This document shows positions 41,596-43,187 of a DNA stretch of 64,000 bases, one piece after another. Numbering within the stretch: position 1 is the first letter of the stretch; the number at the start of each line of letters is the position of its first letter. This stretch comes from Escherichia phage PMBT16. Under the pieces are notes generated by a model. It saw only the letters and a list, made by a program, of their open reading frames with translations, did no database searches and was not told where the DNA came from. A program made the translations under genes and the position numbers. The DNA is taken from sequence record PP554575, one strand, 5' to 3'.

Positions 41596-41961
41596 ATGGA
41601 ACAAATGAACGATCAAGCGTCGGTTGCGATGAACGAGCAAGAACAACCTCAAGAATTTTTCTTAGGGTTAAGTAAAGATCAAGTGTCTCTTCTGCTAGTG
41701 CTTTCTTCTTTCATGGGAAGACTTCAGGAGCTCACACAACAGCCAGAGGCTGAACAATTATTTCAGGCTCTGCGTGAAGAAGAAAAATATCGTCGTTTGG
41801 ACTATGCCTTAGGTTGGGTAGCTCAACAACGAGATATGCTGATGGCCCTCTCTGGGACCACAAGTTTTGCAATGGGCCTGTTGGCTCAAGTTCAGGACAA
41901 ATTAATTCAAGCAGGGTTTGCACACACGGCAAACACTAACGAAGAACAAGGAGACAAATAA
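41596..41961 (+). CDS. Hypothetical protein (121 aa)
   Basis: RBS GGAGA; helical, Gln-rich. Confidence 0.45.
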   Translation: MEQMNDQASVAMNEQEQPQEFFLGLSKDQVSLLLVLSSFMGRLQELTQQPEAEQLFQALREEEKYRRLDYALGWVAQQRDMLMALSGTTSFAMGLLAQVQDKLIQAGFAHTANTNEEQGDK

Positions 41962-43187
41962 TGAGCGTTATTCAACAATTCGCTAACCCGATGAATCCGC
42001 GTGAAACTGTTTTACTGGCTCACGGCATGATTAAACGCGTCAGCATCAAGCCTATCAAAGGTGCTGATCCTACAACAGGTATTAAAACCACTGTGTGGCA
42101 AGGTAAGAAAATTGAGTCCAGCCACACCATCTCTTTACTGATTTCTGAACTGGATTCCTCTGATAACCTGCTTCAAGGTGGCGAAGAAGTCTGGATCAGC
42201 ATGGGTGATAAGCTGCTTAAACCGGGCCATCAAGACTCTGTCTCTGTTAAGATTGATGACAAGTGGGAAACCGTAACGCCAGGATGGATCGTAAATATCC
42301 CTTTGAAGGCAAACGAGCATAATGGTAAGACCTATTACAAAGGCTCACTGGCTAAGATGGTTAAGCTGGGCGCAGGAGAGGCTCCAGCAGCGACTCAGCA
42401 GCAAAAACAGCAACAAGGTGCACAATCACAAGGCCAGAAGCAGAAACCTCAGCAGAATGCCAATCAGGACGTTTTACGCATCTATGGCGATGTGACTCAG
42501 ATTGTTGGCAACGTGGTTACTGTTAATGACCACAAGATTGGCGAAGGTGCTATGGTTGTAACTGATGAGCAGCTTAAAGACCTGGTGGTAGGTGGTCGTG
42601 TTGCAGCCATTGTTGACAAAGACACCGGAAACATTATCAGTGGTTTCAAAGCCTATCCACCTAAGGCAGAGAACGGCACTCAAGGCTCTGGTGGCAAGCG
42701 TAAATCATCTTACGACCCTATCGGTGTGGAGACGGGACATAGCATCAATGCGTTGCAGATCATCCTGGATCGAGGGTTTAAGGTAGACGACCCACTAGGC
42801 GTGGCTAAAACACTGCACGTAGTCACCATTGAGCTTAAGAAAGAGTATGCTCAAGCCACCAACCGAACTGAAGATGAAGTAGGTGCCAGTGTCGGTAATG
42901 CAGTGTTGAACGCTTGTCGCCGTATTGACAAGAAAACGAAAGTTGATGATTTTGCAGCGGCAATTACTGCAGAAGCAAAAGATGTCTTGACTAATCTGGC
43001 TGAGCCGTTGTACGATTGGATCAAGAACGGTGCTGGGTCAACTGACCATCAAGAACCTCAGGCTGCCAAACAGGAAGCCGCTCCACAGCAAAACACTGTA
43101 GACGCTCCTCCTGTAAATGATGAGGAAGATGACCCGATGGATCAGAATCCAGCACAGTATGAGTTCGATGACTCGATCCCTTTCTGA
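41961..43187 (+). CDS. SSB-like protein with bacterial-type acidic C-terminal tip
   Basis: C-terminus ends YEFDDSIPF, resembling the DDDIPF tip of bacterial SSBs; Gln/Gly-rich linker; located beside polymerase and primase genes; N-terminal OB fold not verified. Confidence 0.5.
   Translation: MSVIQQFANPMNPRETVLLAHGMIKRVSIKPIKGADPTTGIKTTVWQGKKIESSHTISLLISELDSSDNLLQGGEEVWISMGDKLLKPGHQDSVSVKIDDKWETVTPGWIVNIPLKANEHNGKTYYKGSLAKMVKLGAGEAPAATQQQKQQQGAQSQGQKQKPQQNANQDVLRIYGDVTQIVGNVVTVNDHKIGEGAMVVTDEQLKDLVVGGRVAAIVDKDTGNIISGFKAYPPKAENGTQGSGGKRKSSYDPIGVETGHSINALQIILDRGFKVDDPLGVAKTLHVVTIELKKEYAQATNRTEDEVGASVGNAVLNACRRIDKKTKVDDFAAAITAEAKDVLTNLAEPLYDWIKNGAGSTDHQEPQAAKQEAAPQQNTVDAPPVNDEEDDPMDQNPAQYEFDDSIPF

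Follow-up and report, generated by a model that had tools for sequence, protein, structure and literature searches.

A putative single-stranded DNA-binding protein with a bacterial-type C-terminal tip in the replication region of an rV5-like phage

[quoted passage not shown] The closest described system to ours is Bas52_0087 of Escherichia phage RudolfGeigy (Bas52), which the same preprint identifies genetically as the trigger of DRT10/UG17 and describes, from structure prediction, as a predicted SSB-like protein with two OB folds, a disordered C-terminus and the C-terminal tip FDDDIPF. The changes reported there to escape DRT10, D252V and Y351C, are both missense, with neither knock-outs nor tip changes among them (bioRxiv 10.64898/2026.04.29.721553). 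Extra wild-type Bas52_0087 enhances DRT10 defence and SbcB overexpression attenuates it; expression of Bas52_0087 alone is neither toxic nor enough to activate DRT10. How readily this defence is triggered depends on a threshold that host Exo I (SbcB), a classic client of the SSB tip, determines (bioRxiv 10.64898/2026.04.29.721553). With two escape mutants described in that text, essentiality of the gene follows only weakly. The same text gave the SSB-like reading independently of our analysis, together with a genetic link to SbcB/Exo I.

The acidic tail of the T7 primase-helicase gp4 docks on the phage polymerase. That of T7 gp2.5 likewise anchors on a basic patch of the polymerase, and its C-terminal Phe is essential (PMC12339929). 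The corresponding hub motif of E. coli SSB, the SSB-Ct sequence DDDIPF, is bound by more than 14 proteins, including Exo I and also PriA, chi and DnaG (PMC5872125). That a phage can use a host-like tip for a partner of its own has a precedent in the SSB of HK620, a distant SSB homologue whose C-terminal hexapeptide NDYPPF recruits the phage's own Sak4 on ssDNA (PMC5928155). The HK620 protein differs from the family discussed below, phrog_4477, in belonging to another family, in its place in a recombination module and in having its ssDNA binding proven experimentally; our literature search found no experiment on ssDNA binding by the phrog_4477 family.

The window (the whole 64,000-nt stretch of DNA analysed here) comes from an rV5-like Vequintavirus, and the SSB-like gene and its neighbours are laid out in Table 1. 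The first-pass annotation had described a 408-aa ORF ending in YEFDDSIPF, and both ORF and translation bear this out, with an ATG start, a TGA stop and a product that closes with NPAQYEFDDSIPF. The protein is an orthologue of Bas52_0087 and of rV5 gp209. It is identical to Bas52_0087 (QXV84166.1) at 405 of 408 positions (99.3%), without gaps, at the same locus and with the same flanking genes, and departs from it at residues 369, 401 and 405 only: A369 for T, E401 for S and, within the tip, FDDSIPF rather than FDDDIPF. The residues at the two escape sites, D252 (42714-42716) and Y351 (43011-43013), are unchanged, and both fall inside a four-helix bundle. To read the protein as SSB-like with a host-type tip is right in outline and already known from the Bas52_0087 preprint. 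The available preprint text does not treat the four-helix bundle as a separate, most conserved domain, nor does it cover how wide the family is, the tail of the helicase or the add-on found after the tip in some relatives. We regard the helical core domain, the matching helicase tail, the portable add-on and the endonuclease-linked recoding of the tip as leads rather than discoveries.

Table 1. Features of the SSB-like gene and of its surroundings, in window coordinates
Feature	Position	Strand	Basis or remark
T7 gp4-like primase-helicase	33868..35946	+	Pfam DnaB_C/AAA_25; tail ...GFEDDETPF at 35917-35943
T7 gp5-like family A DNA polymerase	36005..38782	+	Pfam DNA_pol_A, below curated cut-off
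121-aa ORF preceding the SSB-like gene	41596..41961	+	translationally coupled via TAATG overlap
Shine-Dalgarno AAGGAG	41948..41953	+	7 nt before the SSB-like ATG; read from sequence
SSB-like coding sequence	41961..43187	+	ORF and translation
OB-like beta-barrel N-domain, aa 1-139, putative main ssDNA-binding domain	41961..42377	+	AF2
Gln-rich disordered linker 1, aa 140-169	42378..42467	+	pLDDT < 50
Middle small OB domain (putative), aa 170-236, b1-b2-b3-helix-b4-b5	42468..42668	+	secondary-structure order
Four-helix bundle, aa 250-358	42708..43034	+	AlphaFold model; most conserved part of the family
Acidic Pro/Gln-rich disordered tail, aa 359-400	43035..43160	+	pLDDT < 50
Tip EFDDSIPF, Phe as last residue, bacterial SSB-Ct-like	43161..43184	+	translation, family alignment
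Mobile (homing-type) endonuclease gene	43196..43774	+	between the SSB-like gene and its terminator; insertion boundaries from sequence
Terminator-like hairpin, 9-bp stem, 7 GC, then T-run	43790..43811	+	sequence read

Over its whole length (residues 1-408 on profile positions 1-393) the protein matches phrog_4477 at E = 4.1e-173, a family whose profile retrieves 247 clusters at 50% identity. Known SSB families gave a different picture. Neither the protein nor any of 138 phrog_4477 members matched a Pfam family, and searches of PDB sequences with the single protein and with the family profile produced no match, the best OB-type hit being CspA at E = 0.77. When each domain was compared by hhalign with gp2.5 and bacterial SSB profiles, the probability was at most about 4% (against gp2.5, 0.3% for the N-domain, 4.1% for the middle and 0.1% for the helical domain), in a test of low power, since the control of gp2.5 against the bacterial SSB OB reaches 7% only. 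Against the bacterial SSB OB profile the probability did not exceed 0.9%, which does not place the OB domain in PF00436, and BLASTP against T7 gp2.5 (E = 0.86) does not place the protein in the gp2.5 type. A tblastn search of rV5 and the window with E. coli SSB as query returned a match to the tail only (E = 0.03) and no bacterial-type SSB OB domain. By sequence, no domain of the protein belongs to the bacterial SSB or the T7 gp2.5 family. The 'SSB' labels on the relatives in Klebsiella phages phi1_175008 and KpS11 were rejected as independent evidence; in the phi1_175008 protein the SSB-family matches (PHROGs 18154 and 7364) are weak and restricted to the last ~30-40 residues, that is, to the tail.

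The OB-fold prediction for the N-terminal region that the first-pass annotation had suggested as a check returned a confident barrel (pLDDT 91.1, pTM 0.83 in the AF2 model) with OB-type neighbours, but no significant fold match. Its Foldseek neighbours in the PDB are RPA70, bacterial SSBs, DUF2815, the phage p2 SSB and the MCM OB, all non-significant at E >= 0.037, and these weak neighbours are almost all ssDNA-binding OB folds. Taking the full-length and N-domain searches together, the best match has E = 0.037 and TM does not exceed 0.43, with none significant; DUF2815 (4klk) appears at E = 0.043 with the full length and at 0.095 with the N-domain, with a TM of about 0.27, also not significant. 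In BFVD, the family members are followed by DUF2815 at E = 2.7e-3 and by several proteins named 'ssDNA-binding' or 'DNA helix destabilizing' at E = 0.01-0.05, a pattern that agrees with a gp2.5/DUF2815-like OB fold but does not reach significance. Residues of the N-domain that are conserved in the family alignment are G22, H55, W78, K97, W102, G108 and G122.

In all, the AlphaFold models contain three confidently predicted domains and a disordered acidic tail. We assign a second, smaller OB fold to the middle domain because it has the classic strand order and because of a comparison of two match lists: IF1, Rpt-OB and RPA14 match it in the full-length fold search (prob 0.99, 65-71 columns, rmsd 2.9-4.2 Å) and are not among the 50 matches listed for the search with the N-domain only. 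This domain is optional, being present in 41 of 138 phrog_4477 members, with short forms that lack it. The Gln/Gly-rich linker that had been singled out as unusual is present and predicted to be disordered, but it is not special, as it separates two folded domains and does not stand before the tip. It varies by insertion and deletion, with 4 aa missing from a 98%-identical relative (P0002, 404 aa) and 13 aa from a 95%-identical one (P0005, 395 aa).

The helices of the bundle span residues 253-270, 278-299, 304-321 and 328-355 (pLDDT 87-95), and its conserved positions are D252, G255, G259, H260, N263, K283, H286, K293, G308, G312 (100%), A314 and A318. That the most conserved domain is also the site of the escape mutations could be taken to mean that the protein is a replisome adaptor or processivity factor that does not bind DNA and bridges polymerase and primase-helicase through the bundle and the acidic tail, while host SSB coats the ssDNA. 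The weakness of the OB similarity and the conserved position in the replication module, described below, would also fit. We nevertheless consider such a role very unlikely, as the OB-like barrels keep the aromatic and basic residues H55, W78, K97 and W102 throughout the family, an SSB role accounts most simply for a tail that is the same as in SSBs, and our searches turned up no precedent for such an adaptor.

The resemblance of the tip to that of bacterial SSBs, which the first-pass annotation had noticed in this one protein, extends across the family. The phrog_4477 consensus, DFDDDIPF, ends in the same six residues as the E. coli SSB-Ct motif and coincides with the final 8 residues of the mEpX2 SSB core tip. 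Across 138 diverse aligned members, P407 is conserved in 96% and F408 in 95%, and the four preceding acidic positions in 70-91%, although the ~40 residues before the tip cannot be aligned, which argues that the tip is not there by chance. An exact [ILVM]PF end is found in 104 of 139 family representatives of at least 230 aa, and the SSB-like ORF is the sole one in the window, among ORFs of at least 60 aa in six frames, with an acidic [ILVM]PF end. The whole tail has a net charge of -12 and is negative in 95% of family members. Like E. coli SSB and its phage copies (P1, and lambdoid ones such as mEpX2), the protein has a disordered Gln/Pro-rich tail and a tip of the form ...D-D-[DS]-I-P-F with Phe last. 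Unlike the bacterial SSB (PF00436), which has a single tetramerising OB, it combines two predicted OB domains with a helical bundle and is about 2.3 times longer. The proposed SSB-like identity is supported as far as predicted barrels and tip are concerned, whereas membership of a known SSB family by sequence does not, and the fold matches are weak.

The genomic setting recalls T7. The window's primase-helicase is 24.7% identical to T7 gp4A over 522 aa (E = 1.8e-21), and its polymerase matches T7 gp5 in BLASTP at E of about 2e-19 and shares the C-terminal ...CH; in the polymerase, the loop that corresponds in the alignment to the T7 front basic patch is shorter, and only GKKF remains. The SSB-like gene lies downstream of both genes on the same strand in the window, in a phi92-like phage and in three distant metagenomic members, and in rV5 no other SSB is annotated among 273 features, though the rest of the replisome is encoded. 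Like T7 gp2.5, the protein has an acidic disordered tail ending in Phe, in a genome with a gp4-like primase-helicase and a gp5-like polymerase; the weak fold matches of its predicted OB core include DUF2815 and gp2.5-type proteins. As in T7, the phage helicase carries a matching acidic-Phe tail (in T7, gp2.5 ends in ...DEDGDF and gp4 in ...SNDTDF; the primase-helicase of the window ends in ...EDDETPF). Unlike gp2.5 (PF21265), it carries in addition a second small OB and a four-helix bundle, its tip is ...DDxIPF and not ...DGDF, and it shows no sequence or profile kinship; the genome, moreover, is that of a 137-kb myovirus and not of a T7-like podovirus. An acidic-PF helicase tail was also considered as a family-wide trait and rejected, since the helicases of distant relatives end in -KDF, -GSY and -NYG.

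Our preferred reading, to which we give a probability of roughly 60%, is that the SSB-like ORF encodes the phage's own ssDNA-binding protein, of the non-canonical phrog_4477 family, serving a T7-like replisome. The N-terminal barrel and the optional small OB would bind ssDNA exposed by the phage primase-helicase, the four-helix bundle may mediate self-assembly or partner contact, and the acidic ...IPF tail would act as a docking peptide whose first client, by analogy with gp2.5, may be the phage family A polymerase. The similar acidic ...TPF tail of the primase-helicase supports this analogy. As the tip hardly differs from the host SSB-Ct, the protein should also bind host clients such as Exo I (SbcB) or compete for them; host ssDNA metabolism would be perturbed in this way, and that would be the signal for DRT10. 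Given the T7-like module and the acidic tail of the helicase, the tip probably serves the phage replisome first, and engagement of host partners is plausible as cross-talk. Of the host mimicry or hijacking put forward by the first-pass annotation, then, the engagement may hold, but, with the T7-like module and the helicase's ...TPF tail in view, it is probably not the primary role.

The tip could instead be the whole point. On this account the protein would not be an SSB at all, and a host-type tip on an unrelated scaffold would titrate or redirect host SSB-interacting proteins, among them Exo I, RecQ, PriA and chi, as an anti-defence device or for host shut-off. The tip is indeed nearly identical to the host DDDIPF, no domain is a member of any SSB family by sequence, the folded domains are not markedly basic (net charges of +2 for the N-domain, -2 for the middle and -4 for the helical domain), and the preprint links the protein genetically to SbcB. 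We find a decoy quite unlikely all the same. Its position in primase-helicase/PolA modules is kept across very distant phages, the model contains two OB-like barrels, rV5 offers no other SSB candidate despite its remaining replisome genes, and the phage's own helicase bears the same kind of tail. The genetics described in the preprint point the same way: the escape changes are missense in the helical bundle and not knock-outs or tip changes, and the protein expressed on its own is not toxic and does not activate DRT10.

A primary function in recombination, as a single-strand annealing protein or mediator and not as a replicative SSB, deserves consideration because the T7 RefSeq record annotates gp2.5 as both ssDNA-binding and ssDNA-annealing, because phage SSB tips recruit recombinases, as in the HK620 SSB-Sak4 pair (PMC5928155), and because known SSBs have nothing that corresponds to the additional helical domain. 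The gene is, however, linked to those for helicase and polymerase and not to any for an exonuclease or recombinase, and the exonuclease and endonuclease VII genes of rV5 lie ~45 kb from it, and the protein has no similarity to Rad52, RecT, Erf or Sak4 in Pfam or PHROGs; we think this function unlikely as the primary one. Recombination and replicative SSB roles could coexist in one protein.

Should rV5-like and phi92-like phages use this protein as their replicative SSB, an annotation gap would be filled in several groups of phages that infect Enterobacteria. It would also offer a tractable system for asking whether a phage SSB tip serves the phage replisome, the capture of host partners or both, and whether a defence system senses such dual use. 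The practical result is modest. Many of these phages are therapy candidates, and the protein is almost always labelled 'hypothetical'.

The immediate surroundings of the gene show both conservation and exchange. Its ATG overlaps the TAA stop of the preceding ORF (TAATG at 41959-41963), and relatives carry a small ORF at the matching position, 31% and 25% identical in KpS11 and in the P0044 contig; for the phi92-like phage, identity of the small upstream ORF is ~22%, so homology is uncertain there. Downstream, the window has a homing-type endonuclease gene that the Bas52 locus lacks. The same gene is found in Bas58, where it is called a 'putative homing endonuclease', and in Bas52 the terminator-like hairpin follows directly 3' of the SSB-like gene. 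The last 10 codons of the SSB-like gene differ from those of Bas52 at 11 of 30 nt, against 98.3% identity just upstream. The homing-type endonuclease gene is responsible for this local recoding of the tip and has no part in SSB function.

In rV5 and several other lineages the tip is followed by a 15-aa add-on, AP[IV]GLQY..H.I[YH].[LI], which would mask the free C-terminal Phe. One origin considered for the rV5 add-on, namely that it arises only because the start of the downstream endonuclease gene overlaps, was rejected, as the P0044 contig has the add-on with no downstream endonuclease and the same add-on occurs on canonical SSBs and on one primase-helicase. It is tempting to speculate that the acidic [ILV]PF tip, alone or followed by the add-on, is a portable 'replisome address tag' that has moved horizontally between unrelated scaffolds, in part when homing endonucleases co-convert the 3' end of the gene. 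On this view, one short peptide signal would connect several phage proteins to the phage polymerase as well as to the host SSB interactome. The add-on would act as a cap, or as a further motif, that hides the tip or directs it elsewhere, and defences of the DRT10 kind would respond to the upset that this causes to host Exo I. We hold this wider proposal to be doubtful. The scaffolds on which we have seen the tip are canonical OB SSBs of temperate phages, the phrog_4477 family and the primase-helicases of Mydoviruses.

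Practically this protein has already been read as SSB-like. The window region is 97-98% identical to that of rV5-like Vequintavirus myophages of E. coli, and the SSB-like protein, labelled 'hypothetical' in nearly all database records, is 100% identical to its bov10K2 counterpart. Over 408 aligned aa, its identity to the rV5 protein and to that of the BASEL phage RudolfGeigy (Bas52) is 99.3%. At the orthologous position Bas52 carries bas52_0087, whose product (QXV84166.1) shares 405 of 408 residues; the differences, A369T, E401S and S405D, are confined to the tail and leave D252 and Y351 intact. 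According to a preprint of 30 April 2026 (bioRxiv 10.64898/2026.04.29.721553), Bas52 mutants that escape the reverse-transcriptase defence DRT10 (UG17) carry D252V or Y351C in this protein. Surplus wild-type protein strengthens the defence, its expression alone gives no activation, and the defence weakens when the host exonuclease SbcB (Exo I) is overexpressed; the case is genetic. From AlphaFold2 and Phold, the preprint's authors describe an SSB-like protein whose C-terminus is disordered, which has two OB folds and which carries FDDDIPF, a motif resembling the C-tip of E. coli SSB. Since the near-identical orthologue has been given the same reading, the interpretation is known. The family-level details reported here are not described in the literature searched, including the accessible preprint text, and are leads for follow-up. 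Sixteen GenBank records named 'Campylobacter phage' also match this E. coli Vequintavirus region, 15 giving Campylobacter jejuni as host; MG065662, MG065672, MG065674 and MG065677 are 97% identical to it. Their naming is probably mislabelling or contamination.

We propose that in a T7-like replisome this protein is the putative replicative SSB and that DRT10 senses its cross-talk with the host, and give this reading a probability of about 0.6. Downstream of the family A polymerase come small ORFs and then the SSB-like gene, all on one strand. The order primase-helicase, PolA and, within 1.4 kb, SSB-like gene recurs in a phi92-like Klebsiella phage and in three distant metagenomic members, in which part of the protein aligns at ~30-36% identity. 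None of the 273 features of the rV5 reference genome is annotated as an SSB, although polymerase, helicases, ligase, exonuclease and endonuclease VII are among them, and tblastn with E. coli SSB matches only the tail of the SSB-like gene. Because gene order is conserved and no other SSB was found in rV5, this gene is the predicted occupant of the SSB slot. As annotated, the rV5 polymerase region (31432-34383 of L003, the rV5 sequence) is broken into a 'DNA polymerase' of 775 aa, a further 'DNA polymerase' fragment of 111 aa and two small ORFs, whereas the window polymerase is one intact 925-aa ORF; a frameshift or insertion in rV5, or a sequencing error, may account for the split. The N-terminus of a 185-aa ORF at 44932-45489 weakly matches a Macro domain (E = 6.5e-6, profile positions 1-32 only), and a Macro_2-like gene likewise lies near replication genes in the distant sequence L012.

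Features of the replication region and of the SSB-like protein (window nucleotides unless stated; domains from the AlphaFold2 model)
Feature	Position	Strand	Details
PIF1-like helicase		+	same strand as SSB-like gene
gp4-like primase-helicase	33868-35946	+	E = 1.8e-21 to T7 gp4
Primase-helicase acidic tail	35917-35943	+	ends ...HVPGFEDDETPF (...GFEDDETPF), terminal -PF
gp5-like family A polymerase	36005-38782	+	E = 1.8e-19 to T7 gp5; C-terminal ...CH common to both
Upstream small ORF	41596-41961	+	121 aa; apparently coupled via TAATG; no Pfam match
Shine-Dalgarno AAGGAG	41948-41953	+	strong; 5' of SSB-like ATG
SSB-like gene	41961-43187	+	ATG start, 408 aa, ending ...NPAQYEFDDSIPF, then TGA
N-domain	aa 1-139		all-beta
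Gln-rich linker	aa 140-169; 42378-42467		disordered
Middle domain	aa 170-236		small beta domain, b1-b2-b3-helix-b4-b5
Short linker	aa 237-249		disordered
Four-helix bundle	aa 250-358		pLDDT 87-95
Tail	aa 359-408		disordered, net charge -12
Homing-type endonuclease ORF	43196-43774	+	579 nt; insertion roughly 43188-43778, between SSB-like gene and terminator
Add-on, rV5 gp209 3' end	L003 26982-27028
Add-on, sequence L009	L009 3501-3578
Add-on, sequence L010	L010 2501-2581

The 408-aa ORF with an acidic, SSB-type end named in the first-pass annotation is borne out as written by the ORF and its translation, and it alone among window ORFs of at least 60 aa has an acidic [ILVM]PF ending. Its ATG overlaps the TAA of the 121-aa ORF just upstream (TAATG), which indicates translational coupling of the two; their products could be partners. 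Other Vequintavirinae have a small ORF at the same place directly 5' of the gene (25-31% identity), and the homology of a phi92-like one to the 121-aa ORF is uncertain. A perfect sigma-70 consensus (TTGACA, 17 nt, TATAAT) lies ~1.7 kb 5' of the gene at 40248-40276 (+), and promoter-like sites are enriched in 38700-45600 (21 observed against 11.5 expected).

The full-length AlphaFold2 model was built from 26 homologues. Modelled by itself, the N-domain reaches pLDDT 91 and pTM 0.83. Foldseek gave it no significant match in the PDB (best E = 0.037, TM <= 0.43), and the matches listed, none significant, are mostly ssDNA-binding OB folds; the OB folds matched are RPA70/32/14, bacterial SSBs, DUF2815, lactococcal phage p2 SSB, PrgE, Cdc13, CST and an MCM OB domain. 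Among predicted viral structures the top matches are the protein's own family, followed among named ones mostly by DUF2815, 'ssDNA-binding' and 'DNA helix destabilizing' proteins, the gp2.5 type. An OB fold in the N-terminal region, raised in the first-pass annotation, is thus favoured by a confident beta model and an OB-dominated match list in which no match is significant. The full-length search added IF1, proteasome Rpt-OB and RPA14 (probability 0.99, 65-71 columns, 2.9-4.2 A), which are missing among the 50 matches listed for the N-domain; the output carries no aligned query range, and we infer their placing. Because of its strand order and because the listed N-domain matches lack these proteins, the middle domain would be a minimal classic OB. 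Two OB folds agree with the preprint account of Bas52_0087. The Gln-rich linker varies among close relatives, with 4-aa and 13-aa deletions in P0002 (98% identical) and P0005 (95% identical); CAG/CAA is abundant in its DNA, a sign of possible slippage.

No Pfam family matches the protein or any of 138 members of its family, and a search of PDB sequences with the family profile gave no significant match. By hhalign, each domain reaches at most 4% probability against the T7 gp2.5 (PF21265) and bacterial SSB (PF00436) profiles, a result that excludes membership by sequence in either family and is silent on a shared fold, since gp2.5 and bacterial SSB, run against each other as a control, score only 7%; a shared fold is still compatible with it. 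The earlier description as an SSB with a host-type tip is partly supported, for SSB-like architecture and for the tip; by sequence the protein lies outside both known families, and its design resembles both. The 'SSB' label of a phi92-like relative was rejected as independent support: it matches SSB families only weakly and only within its final ~30-40 residues, so that the tail seems to be the basis of the label.

A profile search of 1.84 billion representatives placed 247 clusters at 50% identity in the family. The commonest form, of 260-300 aa, comprises N-domain, helical bundle and tail; as most members are this short and the middle OB is present in only 41 of 138 aligned, the 408-aa form is best seen as an extended version of a core with two domains. 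The helical bundle is the most densely conserved part: D252 (81%), G255, G259, H260, N263, K283, H286, K293, G308, G312 (100%), A314 and A318. Its recurring small-xxx-small motifs suggest tightly packed helices. Both DRT10 escape sites fall here, D252 immediately preceding helix 1 and Y351 towards the end of helix 4, and the modelled up-down topology would bring them near each other in space. Conserved N-domain residues include H55, W78 (aromatic in 72%), K97 and W102 (aromatic in 88%), a pattern compatible with base stacking. The tail is unalignable except at its end, where D401-D405 (70-91%), P407 (96%) and F408 (95%) are conserved; 104 of 139 family representatives have the exact [ILVM]PF end.

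T7 gp2.5 (...EEADEDGDF) and gp4 (...DWSNDTDF) both end in acidic, Phe-terminated tails, as do the window's helicase and SSB-like protein. The T7 gp4 tail uses the same polymerase sites as the gp2.5 tail (Richardson laboratory work). The latter, whose C-terminal Phe is essential, is anchored on a basic patch at the polymerase front (PMC12339929 and references therein). In the window polymerase, the loop aligned to that patch retains only GKKF. The rV5 helicase has the same tail as the window's; acidic-PF helicase tails are confined to Vequintavirus and Mydovirus, and distant relatives lack them. Most economically, and with the short GKKF loop and the restricted spread of the helicase tail as caveats, the tip would first link this SSB-like protein with the polymerase of the phage itself. 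The HK620 SSB tip, which recruits the phage partner Sak4 (PMC5928155), is a precedent for a phage SSB tip serving a phage partner. Because the tip is almost identical to the host SSB hub motif DDDIPF (PMC5872125), host clients, Exo I among them, should also come within its reach, in keeping with the preprint's SbcB results. Replisome coupling seems more likely as its primary role than hijacking of host partners.

In Bas52 a terminator lies directly 3' of the SSB-like gene. The window's endonuclease insertion is shared with Bas58 and absent in Bas52, and rV5 has a different endonuclease in its place; the window endonuclease has no Pfam match. Compared with Bas52, 11 of the 30 nt in the final 10 codons of the SSB-like gene are different, against 98.3% identity in the preceding 60 nt. 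A homing-endonuclease target after recoding or co-conversion would be expected to look like this, and such a change probably explains FDDSIPF in the window against FDDDIPF in Bas52.

In rV5 gp209 (423 aa) and several distant lineages, a conserved 15-aa add-on, AP[IV]GLQY....I[YH].[LI], follows the ...IPF tip. An artefact of an overlapping endonuclease gene was rejected, as the relative P0044 carries the add-on with no endonuclease downstream. With tip plus add-on as query, tblastn found 157 phage records covering at least 80% of it, among them canonical temperate-phage SSBs (that of mEpX2 ends ...PPMDFDDDIPFAPVTLPFPRHAIHAI) and the primase-helicase of Klebsiella Mydoviruses (ending ...DDDTPFAPIGLQYAKHAIYVI). 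Since one tail thus occurs on canonical SSBs, the SSB-like family and this primase-helicase, it behaves as a portable module, in which the add-on would bury or mask the C-terminal Phe.
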